From the UHGV virus genome UHGV-0145753: 11,086 nucleotides of DNA; one strand, written 5' to 3'. The notes under the pieces are model-generated. The model saw only the letters and a program-made list of their open reading frames with translations. It searched no databases and had not been told where the DNA came from. How positions within the stretch are numbered: the first letter of the stretch is position 1; each line of letters starts with the position of its first letter. The translations under genes and the position numbers were made by a program. Origin of the DNA: a virus. Shown here piece after piece: positions 10 through 9,405 of the stretch.

Positions 10-43
10 GTCTCGTGGGCTCGGAGATGTGTATAAGAGACAG
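10..43 (+). other. Illumina Nextera read-2 transposase adapter (sequencing artefact, not biological)
   Basis: Positions 10-43 read GTCTCGTGGGCTCGGAGATGTGTATAAGAGACAG, which matches from memory the 34-nt Nextera read-2 adapter ending in the 19-bp Tn5 mosaic end. Positions 1-9 (tgcagcgta) are probably index or adapter-dimer derived; unverified. Confidence 0.88.
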
Positions 44-3000
44 CCTGTAGAACAGCCCGATTCGGCTCAGTCAATGGCGCGCTGCCGCATGCTGCTGGCG
101 CTCGGGGAGGGGGAGTTTGCTGGTGGCCTGGATGCGACCCGGATATTCCTGGACGGTACGCCGTTGGGAAACCCCGACGGAACGATGAATTTTGAAAATG
201 TGTCATGGGATTTCCGGCCTGGCACACAGACCCAGACACCAATACCGGGATTCCCTGCAGTCGAGAATGAAACTACGGTTGGGGTATCGCTGACAAAGGC
301 CACACCATGGACCCGCGCACTGAGTAACACCCAGATTGACGCGGTGCTGGTTCGTATTGGCATCCCTGGGTTACAGCAGCAGGAAAACGATGGGGATATT
401 GTCGGCACTACGGTTCAGTACCATATTGATCTGGCGGTGGACGGTGGCGCTTACTCGACAGTCATGACGAAAACCGTCACAGAGAAGCTCAGCTCGCTCT
501 ATGAACTAACCCACCGTATTAATCTTCCCAAAGCCAGCACTGGCTGGCAAATTCGAGTGGTGCGTGACACCGATGACAGCACCAGCCAGATGCTGCAGAA
601 CAAAACGCAGGTGCAAGCGATTACTGAAGTGATCGATGCTCGCCTGCGATATCCACACACAGCGCTGCTGTACGTGTCCTTTAACGCAAAGTCATTCAAC
701 AACATCCCTAAGATTTCCTGCATGCCGAAGGGGCGCATCATCCGAATCCCTTCGAACTATGATCCAATAGCGCGGACTTATAGCGGAACATGGGACGGGA
801 CGTTTAAATGGGGCTGGACGAATAACCCGGCGTGGATTTGGTTCGATGTTCTGACTGAGCCGCGCTTCGGCCTTGGGCGCCGCGTGACGCCAGAAATGCT
901 CGATAAGTGGGAGCTCTATCGCATCGCCCAGCGCTGCGACCAGAAGGTACCCGACGGGAAAGGCGGAAGCGGTACCGAGCCACGCTTCATGTTTGACGTT
1001 TACATCCAGTCCCAGGCTGATGCCTGGCAGGTGATTAAAGATATTGCCGCGGGCTTCAACGGAATGACTTTCTGGGGCAACAACATGTTCAATGTTGTCT
1101 CTGACATGCCGGCGGACACTACGAAGTTGCAGATCCTCACTCGCGCATCAGTGGTGGGTAAGCCGGTGTACTCGAGTGGCAGTGAGAAAAACCGATTCTC
1201 CAGCGCGCTGATTAACTTCAGCGATCCGGATAACCACTACCAGGACCGCACCACGGCAGTGATGTTTCCGGAACTGGTAAGGCAGTTCAAGTTTAAGCAG
1301 ACACAAATCACTGCGATCGGTTGTACGCGTGAGAGCGAGGCGCAGCGGCGTGGCGGGTGGGCGGGGTATTCCAACTCCCTTGACCGCATTATCACGCTTC
1401 AGACTGGACTTGATGGCTTTGTATTTGTGCCGGGCACCGTATTTGCGTTTGCAGATGAACGCCTGTCAGGGCGCGTTTACGGCGGGCGTATCACCGGGTA
1501 TAACGCTGGTCTTAAGGCCGTGACCATTGACCGGGGCACCAGTGCGGTGGCGGGCGATACGCTGATGATTCGCACCCAGGGCGGTACCGTTGAAAGCCGG
1601 GTGATACAGGCCGTAAATGGCACGCAGCTGATCCTGTCCACGCCGTTCACGGCGGCGCCATTACCTAATGCCGTATTCGTCATTGATGCTGGTCAGCTGC
1701 GCCTGCAGTATTTCCGGGTAACGAACCTAAAATTTGATGATGAGGAAAACACCTTCACCATTACCGGTGCGGAGTATAACGCGTCGAAATACGACGCCGT
1801 TGATAACAACGCTCGCCTCGATACTCCTCCGATAAGCCTGATTCCGACCGGGCTAGTTAACCAGCCGACCAACATCGTGGTATCGAGCTATGATGCGGTT
1901 CGCCAGGGGCAACGCGTGGCCACGCTAACCGCCTCGTGGGATGCGCCAATTGATAAAGACGGCAAACTGCAGTCGGACGTAATAGCGTACCGGGCACAGT
2001 GGAAGCGCGGAAATAACGAATGGGTAAACGTGCCTGAAACCGGGTTACGAAATATCGAAGTGCCTGGCATTTTCGAGGGCGATTACCTTGTGCGCGTCCG
2101 TGCGATTAACTCTGGGGGAGCGTCCAGCCTTTGGGCCACGTCTGCGTTGACCCATCTTACCGGCCGCACCGGTGAAGTGCCCAAACCTGTCGGACTAACA
2201 GCAACAGAGGATGTTGTATTTGGGATCAACATTACATGGGGTTTCCCCGCAGATACCGCCGACACCCTGAGCACGGAACTGCAATACAGCGCTTCAGTCG
2301 ATGGGGCAAATCCAATGCTTTTGGCGTCGGTGCCGTATCCTCAGAAACTCTATCAGCAGATGGGGCTGAAGGCAGGGCAGGAATTCTGGTACCGGGCACG
2401 GCTGGTTGACCGCATCGGGAATCAGAGCGACTGGACAGACTGGGTGCGCGGGCAGGCCAGCATCGATGTTTCCGATATCACCGATGCAATCCTGGAGGAC
2501 ATGAAAGGCTCCGATACGTTCAAAGATCTGATCGAGAACGCGGTGGACAGCAACGAAAAAATTGCTGGCATGGCTAACGATATCAAACAGGCTAACGACG
2601 AACTGGAGCAGCAAGCGAAAGATATCGCCAAAAATGCCCAGGACGTAGGGAAGGTTCAGACCAGCGTTAATGAGCTTTCCAGCACGGTCGGGAATGTTTC
2701 GTCTTCACTCAGTCAGCTTGAGCAGACCGTTGCGACGGCTGATACCGCCCTGGGCCAGCGAATCGACAACATCAGCGTTTCTATGGACGGCATGACGGGC
2801 GGGGTGAAGAACTCTGCAATTGCGATAATCCAGGCAAACCTCGCTCAGGTGGCCACGCGTAAAACCCTTTCTGCATCGGTCGCCGGCAACAGCGCGAATC
2901 TGGACCGTATTGATGAGGTGATTGTCAACGACAGGGAGGCAACGGCGCGCTCGCTGCTGAGCCTGCAGACGGACGTTAACGGCAACAAGGCATCCATCAA

Positions 3001-3571
3001 CAGCCTGAACCAGACGTTCTCCGATTACCAGCAGGCTATGGCCACGCAGGTAAACAGCATCACGGCGACGGTGAACGGGCATACCTCAGCCATCACAACC
3101 AACGCTCAGGCTATAGCGAACGTAAACGGCGACCTCAGCGCGATGTACAACATCAAAGTTGGTGTCTCCAGCAACGGGCAGTATTACGCCGCGGGGATGG
3201 GTATCGGCGTGGAGAATACGCCATCAGGCATGCAGTCACAGGTAATCTTCCTGGCAGACCGTTTCGCCGTGACTACTATGGTCGGCGGGACTGTAACACT
3301 GCCGTTCGTTATCCAGAATGGCCAGGCCATTATCAGGGATACAGTCATTGGCGACGGGACCATAAGCAATGCAAAAATTGGCAATTACATCCAGTCGAAC
3401 AATTATGTTGCCGGCTCTGTTGGCTGGAAACTGGATAAGTCCGGGACGTTTGAGAACTACGGTTCGACAGCTGGGGAGGGAGCCATGAAGCAGACCAACC
3501 AGACAATCAGCGTCAAGGATGGCAACAACGTTCTGAGAGTGCAGGTTGGCCGATTAACGGGGGTGTTCTGA
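44..3571 (+). CDS. J: Phage host specificity / tail tip protein J (lambda gpJ family), 5'-truncated at the contig edge
   Basis: Long ORF whose translation aligns by eye with lambda gpJ from near its N-terminus (e.g. RIPSNYDPIARTYSGTWDGTF versus lambda LQVPSNYNPQTRQYSGIWDGTF). The ATG at 29 lies inside the adapter, so genuine coding sequence starts at 44 in the same frame and a few N-terminal codons are missing. Stop TGA at 3569-3571. Confidence 0.9.
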   Translation, partial: PVEQPDSAQSMARCRMLLALGEGEFAGGLDATRIFLDGTPLGNPDGTMNFENVSWDFRPGTQTQTPIPGFPAVENETTVGVSLTKATPWTRALSNTQIDAVLVRIGIPGLQQQENDGDIVGTTVQYHIDLAVDGGAYSTVMTKTVTEKLSSLYELTHRINLPKASTGWQIRVVRDTDDSTSQMLQNKTQVQAITEVIDARLRYPHTALLYVSFNAKSFNNIPKISCMPKGRIIRIPSNYDPIARTYSGTWDGTFKWGWTNNPAWIWFDVLTEPRFGLGRRVTPEMLDKWELYRIAQRCDQKVPDGKGGSGTEPRFMFDVYIQSQADAWQVIKDIAAGFNGMTFWGNNMFNVVSDMPADTTKLQILTRASVVGKPVYSSGSEKNRFSSALINFSDPDNHYQDRTTAVMFPELVRQFKFKQTQITAIGCTRESEAQRRGGWAGYSNSLDRIITLQTGLDGFVFVPGTVFAFADERLSGRVYGGRITGYNAGLKAVTIDRGTSAVAGDTLMIRTQGGTVESRVIQAVNGTQLILSTPFTAAPLPNAVFVIDAGQLRLQYFRVTNLKFDDEENTFTITGAEYNASKYDAVDNNARLDTPPISLIPTGLVNQPTNIVVSSYDAVRQGQRVATLTASWDAPIDKDGKLQSDVIAYRAQWKRGNNEWVNVPETGLRNIEVPGIFEGDYLVRVRAINSGGASSLWATSALTHLTGRTGEVPKPVGLTATEDVVFGINITWGFPADTADTLSTELQYSASVDGANPMLLASVPYPQKLYQQMGLKAGQEFWYRARLVDRIGNQSDWTDWVRGQASIDVSDITDAILEDMKGSDTFKDLIENAVDSNEKIAGMANDIKQANDELEQQAKDIAKNAQDVGKVQTSVNELSSTVGNVSSSLSQLEQTVATADTALGQRIDNISVSMDGMTGGVKNSAIAIIQANLAQVATRKTLSASVAGNSANLDRIDEVIVNDREATARSLLSLQTDVNGNKASINSLNQTFSDYQQAMATQVNSITATVNGHTSAITTNAQAIANVNGDLSAMYNIKVGVSSNGQYYAAGMGIGVENTPSGMQSQVIFLADRFAVTTMVGGTVTLPFVIQNGQAIIRDTVIGDGTISNAKIGNYIQSNNYVAGSVGWKLDKSGTFENYGSTAGEGAMKQTNQTISVKDGNNVLRVQVGRLTGVF

Positions 3572-4894: not shown

Positions 4895-4915
4895 CCCACT
4901 ACGCTTAAACATAAA

Positions 4916-4938
4916 CCTCGCTCCGGCGGGGTTTTTTT
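4916..4938 (+). terminator. Putative rho-independent terminator after the lipoprotein gene
   Basis: GC-rich imperfect hairpin (cctcgctccggcgggg) immediately followed by a run of seven T (4932-4938). Confidence 0.5.
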
Positions 4939-4954
4939 ATTGCCTGGAGAAAAT

Positions 4955-5896
4955 ATGCTTTATAACACCGGCACCATCGCCATTAATGGAAATACCGCCA
5001 CCGGGACGGGTACAAACTGGACGGCACCGGCCAGCCAGGTCCGCGCTGGCCAGACGATTATCGTGATGTCTAACCCGGTGCAGCTGTTTCAGATTTCATC
5101 CGTGAACAGCGCCACGTCAATGACGGTAACGCCTGCTGCATCACCGGCGCTGAGCGGCCAGAAGTACGGCATTCTGGTATCAGACAATATCTCGGTTGAT
5201 GGGCTGGCGCTGGCCATGTCGCAGCTTATCAAGGAGTATGACGAGAATATTGGTGCGTGGGAGACGTTCGCCACAACCTCAGCCAACCAGAACATTACCG
5301 TTACGATCAATGGCACCAGTTTATCAATCCCGGCTCTTGGGAAATTACTGCAGAAGGGGAGCAACGGAGCTTTGCCGGTTAATCAAGGTGGTACCGGCGC
5401 AACGAATGCCGCAGACGCTCGCACAAACCTTGGTTTGGGAGAAGGTTCGGTGTTACCCGTTGGTGTGCCTGTTCCGTGGCCTGCAGCCACTCCGCCAACA
5501 GGCTGGCTGAAATGCAATGGTGCGGCTTTTTCTGCTGAAGAATACCCAGAACTGGCAAAGGCTTACCCGACAAATAAATTGCCTGATTTACGTGGTGAGT
5601 TTATGCGTGGCTGGGATGATGGAAGAGGCGTTGATAGTGGCAGGGGGATTCTCACTGCGCAATCTCATGGTATGCCGTCTATTTCAGGAACGTTTAATGG
5701 TCTTTTTGCTGTTAAACAAACAAATGGTTTAGGTGGTGTTTCTGTAGCAAAAAGTACAAATACTGAAACTTTATCTACTTCATCTGGATCAGGTTCCGTG
5801 TTTGATTACACGTTTAATGTCAGCGGTTCGACTCCGGTATCACCAGAACTTCGTCCGCGTAATATTGCATTTAACTATATCGTGAGGGCCGCATAA
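4955..5896 (+). CDS. Side tail fiber protein: constant N-terminal part (to about 5430) fused to the currently expressed variable C-terminal part carrying a phage tail-collar-like domain
   Basis: GGAG Shine-Dalgarno 7 nt upstream of ATG 4955 (the ORF-track start at 4940 is a TTG). The N-terminus MLYNTGTIAINGNTATGTGTNW is fibre-like, and the C-terminal motifs (PTGWLKCNGAAFSAEEYPELAKAY, LPDLRGEFMRGWDDGRG) are typical of tail-collar domains. The left inversion site lies in-frame at 5418-5443. Confidence 0.85.
   Translation: MLYNTGTIAINGNTATGTGTNWTAPASQVRAGQTIIVMSNPVQLFQISSVNSATSMTVTPAASPALSGQKYGILVSDNISVDGLALAMSQLIKEYDENIGAWETFATTSANQNITVTINGTSLSIPALGKLLQKGSNGALPVNQGGTGATNAADARTNLGLGEGSVLPVGVPVPWPAATPPTGWLKCNGAAFSAEEYPELAKAYPTNKLPDLRGEFMRGWDDGRGVDSGRGILTAQSHGMPSISGTFNGLFAVKQTNGLGGVSVAKSTNTETLSTSSGSGSVFDYTFNVSGSTPVSPELRPRNIAFNYIVRAA
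5418..5443. repeat. Left recombination site of the invertible segment (gix/hix/pix-like), crossover dinucleotide TT at 5430-5431
   Basis: CTCGCACAAACC-TT-GGTTTGGGAGAA. Positions 5430-5444 are the exact reverse complement of 7254-7268. The half-site resembles the Hin/Gin-type consensus (TTCTC..AAACC) as I recall it. It is embedded in-frame in the tail-fibre gene (codons N-L-G-L-G-E). Confidence 0.7.
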
Positions 5897-6498
5897 TGAA
5901 TAATGCAGAATTAAATAGTGAATTGATTGCTACTGCGGCAGGGAATATTACCGTTTATAACTATGATTGTGAAACACGAGAATATATTTCCACATCAACT
6001 GAATATCTTGCTGTGGGTGTCGGTATCCCGGCATGTTCCTGTCTGGATACACCAGGTATACATAAGGCGGGTTATGCAATATGCCGCTCTGTGGATTTAA
6101 ATTCATGGGAATATGTGCCAGACCATCGAGGTGAAATTGTCTATAGCACCGAAACGGGAGATACCAAAGAAATCACAGTGCCAGGCGACTATCCCGAAAA
6201 TACAACCACTATCGCCCCGTTAACGCCATACGATAAATGGGATGGTGAGAAATGGGTGACCGATATTGAGGCACAGCATAGCGCCGCAGTAGACGCGGCA
6301 GAAGCGCATCGCCAATCGCGGATTGATGCTGCAATGGCTTCCATCAGTCTGATTCAGCTGAAATTGCAGGCCGGACGTAAACTGACGCAGGCAGAAACAA
6401 CCCGGCTTAACGCTGTGCTGGATTACATTGACGCGGTGGTGGCAACAGATACCAGCACCGCGCCGGATGTCATCTGGCCTGAACTACCGGAGGCGTAG
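5896..6498 (+). CDS. tfa: Tail fiber assembly protein (Tfa chaperone) for the currently expressed fibre variant
   Basis: Start overlaps the fibre stop (TAATG) with a GAGGG Shine-Dalgarno upstream. C-terminal motif LDYIDAVVATDTSTAPDVIWPELP is typical of the conserved Tfa C-terminus. Confidence 0.8.
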   Translation: MNNAELNSELIATAAGNITVYNYDCETREYISTSTEYLAVGVGIPACSCLDTPGIHKAGYAICRSVDLNSWEYVPDHRGEIVYSTETGDTKEITVPGDYPENTTTIAPLTPYDKWDGEKWVTDIEAQHSAAVDAAEAHRQSRIDAAMASISLIQLKLQAGRKLTQAETTRLNAVLDYIDAVVATDTSTAPDVIWPELPEA

Positions 6499-6913
6499 GC
6501 CATTCAATATCTGGAGCACTGGAAATATCGACCATTTCCAGTGCATCCAGATAATCCAGCCACAAATTATATTGTGCCAGTTCCTCACCTTTCAGACGAC
6601 CGATAGCTGCTTTACCAGGCCATTGCTTACCGTTCATGTATTCGTTGGCATGGTCAATTCTCGACTTTTTCTCTGAGTCAGCCGCAGCAAGTTGTTCTTT
6701 ATGCGTAGGTGACGGAAGATCTACCCAGCAAGGCAACCCATCATCACCAATGCCACGCATTTTACCCTCAGGAGCGTTTCCCATGAAAACCAGTGCATCT
6801 TCAGCATCTATATTGATGCCGTCTGACGGCCATGTGCCAGCAGTTAAATAATCATATTTCAGTGCCACAAGATAAAAAGCATTTTCCGTCGGGCTGAATA
6901 CATAGTCGACCAT
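6470..6913 (-). CDS. tfa: Alternative tail fiber assembly protein (Tfa-alt), in the silent orientation
   Basis: Conserved Tfa-type C-terminus (LWLDYLDALEMVDISSAPDIEWPTPP). Preferred start is the ATG at 6913, which overlaps the Sv-alt stop in a TAATG junction mirroring the + strand arrangement and has a GGGAG upstream; the ORF-track start at 6931 would add 6 aa. Its 3' end overlaps the + strand tfa convergently by 29 bp. Confidence 0.72.
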   Translation of the reverse strand: MVDYVFSPTENAFYLVALKYDYLTAGTWPSDGINIDAEDALVFMGNAPEGKMRGIGDDGLPCWVDLPSPTHKEQLAAADSEKKSRIDHANEYMNGKQWPGKAAIGRLKGEELAQYNLWLDYLDALEMVDISSAPDIEWPTPPVVQAR

Positions 6914-7268
6914 TAATATCCCACTCCCCATACTGCCACTGTTGAATTAGATTTCGTGTATGCGCAAGCGGCTTTGAATTTGACCCGGTCAACAATCGCT
7001 GCGCTAACAAAAGGGGCTCCATTAGTCGCGTAGATCACAGAATTGACCAGCGAAGGATTGATGGAAAGGCAAGCATTAGGAAAGGCAACCGGCCATGAGC
7101 CATCAACAACGACCATATTACCGTCGGTAGATTGCGGCACTGATAGCGTCTTCCACTGAAGCAATGCTGTTCGTTGTACTCCACCAATTAATACTGGAAT
7201 AGTGATGTTACCTGCACTGCTGGCTAATGCTGTCGCAGCAGGCATTTTCGCTGCTTCTCCCAAACCAA
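6913..7268 (-). CDS. Alternative tail-fibre variable C-terminal cassette (Sv-alt), promoterless and startless; it would be fused in-frame to the constant part after inversion
   Basis: The minus-strand reading frame is open from the right inversion site to a stop at 6913-6915. Across the site it encodes V-G-L-G-E, matching L-G-L-G-E at the left site in the same codon phase, so recombination at the central dinucleotide keeps the frame. The ORF-track start at 7287 is a TTG beyond the crossover. Confidence 0.62.
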
Positions 7269-7280
7269 CCTTTTTTATAA
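7255..7280. repeat. Right recombination site of the invertible segment (gix/hix/pix-like), crossover dinucleotide AA at 7267-7268
   Basis: TTCTCCCAAACC-AA-CCTTTTTTATAA. Its left half and centre are the exact reverse complement of the left site's right half and centre. It lies about 60 bp upstream of the invertase start. Confidence 0.7.
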
Positions 7281-7339
7281 CCATCAAAAATCTGGTGATG
7301 CTTCGCCGTTTCTCCTGTTTTCATAACAGGAGAAATCCC

Positions 7340-7888
7340 ATGATTTACGGTTATGCCCGAGTATCAACAAACCACCAGGACACTGAATTGCAACTAACGG
7401 CGCTCAAGTCAGCGGGTTGTGAGAAAATTTTTGAAGAGCATGCCAGCGGGAGGAAATCGAATCGGCCGGTTCTAAAACGGCTGATCGCCACTATGCAGCC
7501 GGGGGATGAACTGGTGGTCTGGAAGCTGGACAGGATAGGCCGCAACGTTCTGCATGCGCTGTTGATGTTCCAGCAGTTACAGGAAAAGGGTATCAACTTC
7601 CGCAGTATTACCGATGGCGTGGATCTCAAAACAGCCAGCGGCCGCTATAACTTTCGTAACATCCTTTCCGCAGCACAATATGAATCTGATCTTAATAGCG
7701 AACGTACCTTAGCAGGGCTGGCCGTAGCCAGGGCAAAAGGGCGAGTTGGTGGTCGCAGGCCTAAGTTCACGGATGAGCAATGGCGGGAAATGGGGGAGCG
7801 GATGGCAACCGGTGAATCACGACAAAGCGTATCAAAAACGTATGGAGTAGGGCTCTCAACTCTGTATAAAAAGTTTCCAGCTAGCTGA
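7340..7888 (+). CDS. Site-specific DNA invertase, serine recombinase of the Hin/Gin/Cin/Pin family
   Basis: AGGAGA Shine-Dalgarno 7 nt upstream of ATG 7340. N-terminus MIYGYARVSTNHQDTELQ has the catalytic Ser at position 9 (Gin: MLIGYVRVSTNDQNTDLQ) and the C-terminal helix-turn-helix ends GLSTLYKKFPAS (Gin: ALSTLYKKHPAK). About 182 aa; the upstream in-frame extension in the ORF track (from 7202) overlaps the inversion site and is not used. Confidence 0.93.
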   Translation: MIYGYARVSTNHQDTELQLTALKSAGCEKIFEEHASGRKSNRPVLKRLIATMQPGDELVVWKLDRIGRNVLHALLMFQQLQEKGINFRSITDGVDLKTASGRYNFRNILSAAQYESDLNSERTLAGLAVARAKGRVGGRRPKFTDEQWREMGERMATGESRQSVSKTYGVGLSTLYKKFPAS

Positions 7889-7909
7889 TAACGGGAAAGA
7901 AACAGAGAA

Positions 7910-7950
7910 GGGCACAAATATTGTGTACTTTAATGTGCCCTTTAATTTAT
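7910..7950 (+). terminator. Putative terminator hairpin after the invertase gene
   Basis: Perfect 7-bp stem GGGCACA (7910-7916) and TGTGCCC (7934-7940) followed by a T-rich tract (tttaatttatt). The loop is long (17 nt) and contains a TGTGTAC motif, so this could instead be a protein-binding site. Confidence 0.4.
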
Positions 7951-8113
7951 TGATTGGTGGTTGAATTGTCCGTAACTTTTTGATTTAAGTGCAAATTTCT
8001 AATAAATTAGAACACTTTCTTAAATTGTCATTTGGCATATTACGAACAATTCCGCGTAAAAACGTTCTGTTACGCTAAACCCTTATCCAGCAGGCTTTCA
8101 AGGATGTAAACCA

Positions 8114-8136
8114 TAACACTCTGCGAACTAGTGTTA
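8114..8136. repeat. Inverted repeat TAACACT-N9-AGTGTTA; candidate att core-type site pair or operator
   Basis: Perfect 7-bp arms with a 9-bp spacer, inside the AT-rich intergenic region between invertase and integrase and about 30 bp upstream of the TGTGTAC repeats. Confidence 0.3.
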
Positions 8137-8164
8137 CATTGCGTGTAGCTTTGAGTGGGCAACT

Positions 8165-8207
8165 TTGTGTACACTTTTGTGTACCCAAAAACAAAAATGT
8201 GTACCCA
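8165..8207 (+). repeat. Three direct copies of a TGTGTAC(C) motif just upstream of the integrase start; candidate integrase arm-type or regulator binding sites
   Basis: TGTGTAC at 8166-8172 (within the palindrome GTGTACAC), 8178-8184 and 8198-8204. The last two are TGTGTACCCA 10-mers spaced 20 bp apart. A fourth TGTGTAC lies at 7922-7928 in the hairpin loop after the invertase. Confidence 0.45.
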
Positions 8208-8211
8208 TTCA

Positions 8212-9405
8212 ATGATCACCGACACAAAGCTCAGGAAGGCGCTCGGCAAGAAAAGAGATGATATCGAGATTATTTCTGATTCGCACGGGCTCAACGCCAG
8301 AATCAGCCAGGCCGGAAAAATATCATTTTTCTATCGGTATCGCTGGGCCGGTAAAGCGGTAAAACTCAATGTTGGTGATTATCCTGCAATGAGTATCACC
8401 CAGGCAAGAGAGCGTCGCCAACAATTCAGAAACTGGTTAACTGAGGGACTGGATCCGCGAGAGCAGGTGAAGCTGGATAAGCAGACCCGACAGGAAGCGA
8501 TGTCCGTTGCCGAAGCGTTCAATTACTGGATTGAAAGGCACTGTATCGCTAACGGGCTAGTTAAAGTCGATTACTATCGCCAGGTGTTTGAGAAACATAT
8601 CGCCGAACCGATGAAGAATGTCAAAGTCGATAACACAGCGAAAATGCACTGGATCAACGTCTTCGATTCTATAGAAAGCAGGGTGATGGCTCATTACATG
8701 CTTTCGCTGTGCAAACGGGCGTTTAGGTTCTGCGTTAACAGAAGTGTGATCGCCTCAAACCCACTCGAGGGATTACTGCCATCTGATGTCGGGCAAAAGC
8801 CTAAAAAGAGAACTCGCAGGATGGACGATGACGATCTGCGCAAAATCTATCAGTGGTTGAAAAGCCATATGTCGATAGAGTCCGTTTTCCTGGTGAAATT
8901 TATTATGCTTACCGGATGCCGTACGGCTGAGATTCGACTTAGTGAGAGATCATGGTTTCGATTGGATGATAATGAGTGGGTCGTGCCTGCGGGCAGTTAT
9001 AAAACTCGGGTACATATTAGAAGGGGGCTCTCAGACGCCGCCGTTAACTTGGTCAGAAATCACCTCAAGAAAATAAACACCAATCACCTGGTGACTTCAC
9101 AACGTAAAATTGATGGCGGGATCAAAGATTCGCCCGTTCATTCACCTGTGGCATCCAATTACGCCCGTTCTATTTGGAATGGAACAGGTATGGCAGAGTG
9201 GTCGCTTCATGATATGAGGCGGACGATAGCCACAAATCTCTCTGAGTTAGGTTGCCCGCCGCACGTAATTGAAAAGCTACTTGGTCATCAGATGGTCGGT
9301 GTAATGGCTCACTACAATCTGCACGACTACATCGATGACCAAAAACACTGGCTCCACGTTTGGCAGAGCCATCTTGAAAGTATCATTGGTGAGCCATTCA
9401 GTTAA
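8212..9405 (+). CDS. int: Tyrosine site-specific integrase, P4-type (N-terminal arm-binding domain plus C-terminal catalytic domain)
   Basis: N-terminus [17 protein letters not shown]...[23 protein letters not shown]...[18 protein letters not shown] fits the P4-integrase arm-binding pattern. The C-terminus has the catalytic signature ([19 protein letters not shown]...AHY). Start chosen at ATG 8212; the ORF track begins at an upstream GTG (8155) that would put the repeats inside the coding sequence. No strong Shine-Dalgarno at either. Confidence 0.9.

Follow-up and report, generated by a model that had tools for sequence, protein, structure and literature searches.

Why should the ribosome-binding site of a DNA invertase gene form one arm of a perfect inverted repeat? 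The question is raised by a stretch of 11,086 nucleotides (UHGV-0145753, here called the window), which comes from a lambdoid phage of the phi80/HK225 type whose invertible tail-fibre segment is intact, and in which the repeat stands directly before the invertase gene pin. Inversion of tail-fibre genes allows temperate phages to hedge between host ranges, and the rate of switching depends on the amount of invertase. A first-pass annotation of the window proposed that the repeat folds in RNA and hides the Shine-Dalgarno (SD) sequence of pin in transcripts reading through from the invertible segment. Our analysis leads us to propose that the inverted repeat is probably a cis-acting mRNA hairpin that holds pin translation very low.

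The features of the locus are collected in Table 1. Resolvase and HTH_7 domains in the pin product bear out the invertase context that the first-pass annotation had assumed, and the ATG at 7340 is the start typical of the family (MIYGYARVST...). A listed open reading frame of 228 aa (7202-7888) was set aside as a mere open upstream extension of the pin frame, unconserved, as the spacer length differs among relatives. A 20-nt inverted repeat detected by the repeat finder (5425-5444 / 7254-7273) marks both 26-bp TTCTCCCAAACC-AA crossover sites, and inverting 5431-7267 in silico joined the constant 168 fibre residues in frame to the alternative C-terminus of 113 residues. From this in-frame simulated inversion and the crossover sites it follows that the tail-fibre segment together with pin is an intact G-segment-like host-range switch. 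The hairpin itself lies outside the invertible segment, within the 59 non-coding nucleotides that separate pin from the right crossover site. Rightwards of ~7257 the DNA is 99.8% identical to HK225 (invertase) and 93% to phi80 pinL, the right crossover site being the exact left edge of similarity to HK225 and to most E. coli prophages; DNA like this is found in 158 of 5426 complete E. coli genomes. At the other end of the gene, pin directly precedes the integrase gene in the window (gap 7888-8155), where HK225 and phi80 have an annotated attP; a free phage genome has this order, while in an integrated prophage pin and int would be found at opposite ends. A second perfect 11-bp inverted repeat, GCACTGGAAAT-N7-ATTTCCAGTGC (6516-6526 / 6534-6544), has no T-run and lies 18 nt past the stop of the plus-strand assembly gene, inside the 3′ end of the convergent minus-strand assembly gene; it may be due to chance.

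Table 1. Position of the features discussed in the text, in window coordinates
Feature	Position	Strand	Remarks
Lambda-J-type tip protein	29-3571		Pfam
Tail fibre with collar domain	4940-5896		Pfam Collar
Left crossover site	5418-5443	-	26 bp, within the tail-fibre gene
Invertible segment	5431-7267		two alternative fibre C-termini and two tail-fibre assembly genes
Tail-fibre assembly gene	5896-6498	+	Pfam Caudo_TAP
Tail-fibre assembly gene	6470-6931	-	Pfam Caudo_TAP
Fibre C-terminus	6913-7287	-	Pfam Gp53-like_C
Right crossover site	7255-7280	+	26 bp, TTCTCCCAAACC AA CCTTTTTTATAA; inverted repeat with the left site
Small hairpin	7294-7307	+	GGTGA-TGCT-TCGCC, -6.7 kcal/mol; then a T-rich run, which is the 5′ arm of the main hairpin
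Main hairpin, 5′ arm (anti-SD)	7309-7319	+	TTTCTCCTGTT; perfect complement of 7325-7335; non-coding on both strands
Main hairpin, loop	7320-7324	+	TTCAT; in relatives TTCAC, TTTAC or TTTAT
Main hairpin, 3′ arm	7325-7335	+	AACAGGAGAAA; contains the SD
SD of pin	7328-7333	+	AGGAGA; in the 3′ arm, 6 nt before the ATG
pin	7340-7888	+	Gin/Cin/Hin/Pin-type serine DNA invertase, 182 aa; Pfam Resolvase 3.6e-39, HTH_7 1.5e-9
Promoter-like site	7340-7367	-	TTGATA-16-AATCAT; complement of pin codons 1-2 and 8-10; any RNA would start ~7333, antisense to hairpin and leader; speculative
Integrase	8155-9405		Pfam

The sequence of 7309-7335 reads TTTCTCCTGTT-TTCAT-AACAGGAGAAA, and the repeat finder returned it as two arms of 11 bp, 100% complementary, around a 5-nt loop. 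The first-pass annotation had described arms of 10 bp, TTTCTCCTGT (7309-7318) and ACAGGAGAAA (7326-7335), across a 7-nt loop; both arms are found where it placed them and the structure is the same, but the stem is one pair longer and the loop correspondingly shorter. A G7308-U7336 wobble could provide a twelfth pair. The location of AGGAGA in the downstream arm was likewise read correctly. How easily would such a repeat arise by accident? When the window was simulated with a first-order Markov model, 37 of 2000 runs contained a perfect 11-bp inverted repeat with a loop of 3-9 nt, so that origin by chance alone is unlikely, though not negligible, and the conservation described below is a stronger argument for the reality of the hairpin than this statistic.

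In RNA folding the hairpin proved stable, with -14.1 kcal/mol for the 27 nt and -15.4 kcal/mol for 29 nt including the G7308-U7336 pair. Its 78-nt context folds with -25.5 kcal/mol (z = -4.7), and none of 200 shuffles was equally stable. In the predicted fold the SD is unpaired with a probability of 0.01, and opening it in the leader of the window would cost 14-15 kcal/mol, with a predicted open fraction of ~1e-10 at 37 °C; the predicted duplex of AGGAGA with the 16S 3′ end amounts to -6.8 kcal/mol. This occlusion is common to the group: the 25 distinct leaders of the phi80 type all need 11.3-15.2 kcal/mol to open the six SD bases, a cost that falls to 4.0-6.0 kcal/mol when the upstream part is shuffled, and in each leader the observed value was reached by none of 100 shuffles. 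Because of the relation between initiation-site stability and expression that de Smit and van Duin reportedly established, the stem should, on these predicted energies, lower translation by several orders of magnitude despite the strong SD. The predicted block (~1e-10) is in fact so complete that synthesis of Pin from such a transcript is hard to account for, which hints at a further element, such as standby binding of the ribosome, an opener acting in trans or transcription that begins within the stem. The fold is predicted unchanged between 25 and 70 °C, and the opening cost at 42 °C is still 13.2 kcal/mol; an RNA thermometer was therefore rejected, as it needs a marginal stem that opens at ~30-42 °C.

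Has the structure been maintained in evolution? Genome, viral and metagenome scans provided at least 34 distinct upstream variants, next to invertases 79-100% identical to the pin product, from Escherichia, Trabulsiella, Kluyvera, Pseudocitrobacter, Shimwellia, Apirhabdus and uncultured phages. The hairpin is kept in every variant down to 79% protein identity and its stem is nearly invariant; the next invertase clade out (72-74% identity) is without it, and the hairpin-bearing genes form one fairly shallow clade. In IMG/VR, the palindrome TCTCCTGTT-N5-AACAGGAGA stands directly upstream of the ATG of this invertase in 74 of 79 retrievable loci, the remaining five being unrelated coding sequences. 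An alignment of 20 different leaders has 22 invariant columns among the 27 of the hairpin, compared with 9 of 44 upstream and none of 4 in the spacer; in the 5′ arm 9 of 11 columns do not vary, while the non-coding columns upstream do. The loop varies at positions 3 and 5 only, and there only between C and T, whereas the spacer to the ATG differs in both sequence and length (TCCC, TACCC, TTCCC, GCACTC). Counting pairs, 98.4% of cells are paired and 9 of the 11 pairs never vary; one C-A mismatch occurs, in a single contig, and one change is compensatory, the outermost pair having passed from U-A to C-G in the phi80 lineage. Covariation is thus minimal, and its score was reached by 26-27 of 500 shuffles. 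The pattern of substitutions points to strong purifying selection on the 5′ arm, and pairing appears to explain this conservation best, because the arm has no coding or SD role of its own. The hairpin exists, is stable and conserved, and is always at this position.

When divergent variants of the hairpin were sought in the genome, viral and metagenome scans, only the same invariant stem was recovered. The metagenome pattern mostly caught an unrelated family of soil recombinases, and the metagenome matches keep the invariant stem even beside unrelated upstream DNA. The latter is the case of one contig (L358, OGVH01001382.1), in which hairpin and pin are intact and the DNA upstream of TCGCCG is related to that of no other variant; the hairpin is thus directly bordered upstream by a recombination joint and travels with the gene. 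As for the soil serine recombinases, whose products also start with MIYGYARVST (L279, L281, L286, L288 and many more), they carry tandem direct repeats, for example TCTGTTCCAGA twice, and a -10-like CAGAAT or CATAAT that precedes the ATG by a mere 6-7 nt. These genes would accordingly have a very short leader or none, and the repeats may be operators.

The repeat had already been given a name. "IR3" was reportedly introduced in the phi80 genome paper (J Bacteriol 2012). The orthologous repeat is entered under this name as a repeat_region (23919-23929 and 23935-23945) just before pinL in the phi80 record JX871397, where it carries no function or note; the hairpin is therefore already marked in that record and its function is unexplained there. 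IR3 resembles the repeat of the window in its 11-nt arms and 5-nt gap and ends 5 nt before the ATG of pinL; it differs in the outermost pair, which is C-G and not T-A, and in the loop. The two phages also differ in that the invertible segment of phi80 is degenerate, with pseudogene fragments, whereas that of the window is intact. A role as a hairpin would give a likely function to the unexplained IR3 of phi80 and of the related prophages in the 158 E. coli genomes.

According to the mechanism that we propose, any transcript containing 7309-7335 would fold into a hairpin of 11-12 bp with AGGAGA in its 3′ arm, and 30S subunits would almost never bind the buried SD. Pin would in consequence be made at a very low level and inversion of the tail-fibre segment would be rare. 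The brake would apply with certainty to late-operon read-through from the tail-fibre genes. Most probably it would also reach the transcript of pin itself, since neither of the two weak candidate promoters would start transcription beyond the foot of the stem. We favour a brake that acts on every pin mRNA, and we infer that the hairpin forms in vivo, limits translation and sets the inversion rate. Coupling of pin to an upstream open reading frame, of the ATGA type or other, was rejected: in most variants neither of the alternative frames contains a start codon and the frames shift with the length of the spacer, the TAA of the loop is absent from the TTCAC and TTTAC variants, and no conserved open reading frame ends in or after the stem.

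Does the hairpin silence all pin transcripts or only those that come from outside? In the alternative that the first-pass annotation had put forward, with a logic like that of IS10, only transcripts from the invertible segment or the late operon are silenced; the promoter of pin would start inside or after the 5′ arm, leaving the SD of the native mRNA free. We consider such pure insulation against read-through unlikely, though it has points in its favour. Invertase must be made, and from a transcript that includes so stable a stem hardly any translation is to be expected; IS10, moreover, offers a precedent. The way into pin is also free of strong terminators: on the plus strand the sole strong terminator-like site (4913-4934) is upstream of the fibre gene, and between the fibre genes and pin there is only the weak hairpin at 7293-7308, flagged on loose scan criteria for its 6 pairs followed by TTTCTCCTGT. 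Because only this weak hairpin parts them, late read-through into pin is plausible, and late antiterminated transcription would be expected to enter the gene by analogy with lambda and with pR′ and Q as annotated in phi80. What speaks against insulation alone is the position of the possible promoters. Consensus scans found no sigma-70-like plus-strand promoter between the crossover site and the ATG, and there is no -10-like TAnnnT hexamer in 7296-7322, where a start inside the stem would need one. By eye, two weak candidates can be made out. One is TTTATA(7274-7279)-17-GATGCT(7297-7302), a 7/12 match with a start at ~7308-7310, whose TTTATA falls in the right half of the crossover site and whose equivalent in phi80 is TTCAAA-18-GATATT (8/12); the other has a -10-like AAAAAT (7286-7291), aligned with GATAAC in relatives, and a start at ~7298. 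Both starts are upstream of or at the stem base, and therefore the whole anti-SD arm would be in the RNA. Near-complete occlusion of the SD in the predicted RNA and plausible late read-through fit the first-pass annotation; the restriction to read-through does not follow, as the scans place no promoter that would spare the mRNA of pin itself.

In the same stretch, a motif CTGATAACC(A/T)GG is common to two invertase clades and stands equally far from the ATG in both (~-52 to -40 in L003, L060, L062, L066 and L067; ~-52 to -41 in L008-L011). It aligns with ATCAAAAATCTGG (7283-7295) in the window, and GATAAC is found in P2-like leaders too; the motif may be a -10 region or a protein-binding site.

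Could the repeat act as DNA instead of RNA? The 27-bp palindrome would then be an operator, the alternative named in the first-pass annotation, binding a dimeric protein that represses or in some other way controls pin transcription. The repeat is a perfect palindrome with a variable centre, and a double change that keeps the symmetry is equally expected for a dimer site; the comparative data on the main stem fit RNA or DNA alike, since no other pattern would be expected of a symmetric DNA site. In addition, each arm has its outer TTCTCC in common with the crossover half-site TTCTCCCAAACC, of which it is again the outer part. None of the candidate binders that we tested fits, however. A LexA (SOS) box requires CTG-N10-CAG around an AT-rich centre, and here the arrangement is CTG(7315-7317)-N9-CAG(7327-7329), the loop being of 5 nt, hence N9, in all relatives. 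The annotated 19-bp operator of phi80 CI gave 10/18 as its best ungapped match, and the hairpin is invariant across the relatives examined. As regards the invertase, crossover sites (hix/gix/cix/pix) have 26 bp, with two 12-bp TTNTCNNAAACC half-sites and a 2-bp core; the repeat has only the outer TTCTCC (6/12) in common with TTCTCCCAAACC, its arms are without the AAACC core of the sites of the window, its centre is odd and equivalent ends are 25 bp apart. An unbroken run of eleven perfect pairs about a centre of 5 nt is, besides, more usual in a hairpin than in an operator.

Three indirect points favour action as RNA. First, one arm is already accounted for as the SD, so that the other arm is its complement. 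Second, the adjacent small hairpin (GGYGA-N4-TCGCC) keeps its stem through changes from U-G to C-G and from G-C to G-U while its loop varies, and these G-U wobbles pair in plus-strand RNA only, the minus strand having a C-A mismatch. Third, in other invertase clades the initiation region is hidden by sequences that are unrelated and not palindromic, as described below. For these reasons we regard a DNA operator as rather improbable.

It is very unlikely, in our view, that the repeat is an element of antisense control, in which a leftward promoter in the first pin codons (7367..7340) would produce a small RNA that pairs with the pin leader. Such an RNA would begin with the complementary hairpin, like art200 of IS200 and RNA-OUT of IS10, and could add to the effect of the hairpin in cis. 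The synonymous positions of the -35 hexamer are conserved across clades (among 51 distinct 5′ ends, Ser9 is TCA in 47 and Thr10 is ACA in 43), and the Val8 codons give TTGATA, TTGACA or TTGAAA. Nevertheless, the site is a 9/12 match, of which the scanned region has 2 when ~2.1 are expected by chance, and both hexamers are largely dictated by coding (Met-Ile and Val-Ser-Thr). Nor is there a conserved terminator for such an RNA, and Rfam 15 gave no family match, the sole hit being SpF22_sRNA with 13.1 bits against a gathering score of 55 (E = 4.3).

Finally, that the hairpin at 7293-7308 and the T-rich 5′ arm form a terminator or attenuator stopping transcripts before pin, with the large hairpin being incidental, is highly improbable, for although the terminator scan flags this site and IS200 has a terminator just upstream of its SD hairpin, the stem is of only 5-6 bp (-6.7 kcal/mol) with an interrupted T-run, late transcripts are expected to be antiterminated by a Q-like protein (annotated in phi80) and would ignore the signal, neither strand has a T-run behind the large hairpin (ATCCCATG follows it on the plus and CGGCGAAG on the minus strand, which rejects it as an intrinsic terminator in its own right), and the complementarity of its two arms would be left unexplained.

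Is the concealment of the initiation region peculiar to the phi80 type? In mEpX1-type loci (L070, L075-L078), UUCACC pairs with the GGGUGAA ribosome-binding region between -40 and -5, a weaker occlusion that 5-8 kcal/mol would undo. Loci of the P2-like and Mu clade (L193, which is Mu gin, L196/L197 and L223-L277) have an invariant TGGCAT ~35 nt upstream, complementary to the AUGCU start region (about -35 to +5), and the pairing is kept, through U-G, where the start codon is GUG. Opening the start codon in this clade takes a median of 5.5 kcal/mol, compared with 2.9 after shuffling, and in 19 of 35 leaders no more than 5 of 100 shuffles reach the observed cost; for Mu gin the value is 9.4 kcal/mol, reached by none of 100. 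Many leaders of this clade also have an anti-SD CUCC or CCCC ~12 nt before GGGGG. Occlusion of the start region is not universal, as Fels-2 and several other leaders show none. We put forward only tentatively, and consider it doubtful, that a hidden translation-initiation region controls the Gin/Cin/Pin/Hin tail-fibre invertases in general, as a layer not described before and achieved with a different sequence in each clade, to which a conserved antisense promoter in the Val-Ser-Thr codons may add, the inversion rate being set mainly at translation as in IS200 and IS10. A literature search whose scope left out most of the work of the 1980s found no paper on promoters or translational control of gin, cin, pin or hin.

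For the phi80-type genes, a hard-wired translational brake would help to explain why inversion is rare and why it would receive no boost when late transcription enters pin, and mutation of the 5′ arm would be a simple handle for tuning the switching. In kind, this control is an ordinary one, since leaders that hide the SD are already well known from transposase genes.

How does the pin leader compare with known systems? With RNA thermometers such as ROSE and fourU it shares a U- and C-rich strand that pairs with AGGA in the leader; their stems are short or imperfect and melt at 37-42 °C, whereas the pin stem is perfect and predicted at 70 °C. The mom gene of phage Mu, annotated beside gin together with com, has its translation start hidden in a stem-loop that is opened by Com, a protein dedicated to this task. 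Both there and at pin a stem-loop would hide the start of a phage gene that is harmful if over-expressed, but the target genes are different and for pin no activator is known or predicted. In IS10/Tn10, Davis, Simons and Kleckner (1985) are said to have described fold-back inhibition, in which an upstream complement pairs with the ribosome-binding site in transcripts from outside; the promoter of IS10 itself reportedly starts inside the fold-back, so that the native mRNA escapes. This is the logic of the original proposal for the window, and accidental activation of a recombinase is prevented; unlike in IS10, our scans found no promoter inside the fold-back at pin.

The left end of IS200 is the closest functional analogue. 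There, a terminator-type inverted repeat guards tnpA against impinging transcription, and an inverted repeat in the tnpA leader sequesters a near-perfect SD and blocks 30S binding, as established by toeprinting and stem mutations (Ellis, Trussler and Haniford 2015, PMC4513863, with earlier work that they cite). The two genes have no sequence or evolutionary relationship, pin encoding a serine invertase and not a transposase; the pin stem is short (11 bp) and perfect where that of IS200 is long and imperfect, the hairpin upstream of it is much weaker than a real terminator, and the antisense RNA is hypothetical at pin. What they have in common is the design: a DNA-rearranging enzyme that has to be kept rare, a strong SD shut in a local leader stem and, directly before this stem, a small terminator-like hairpin.
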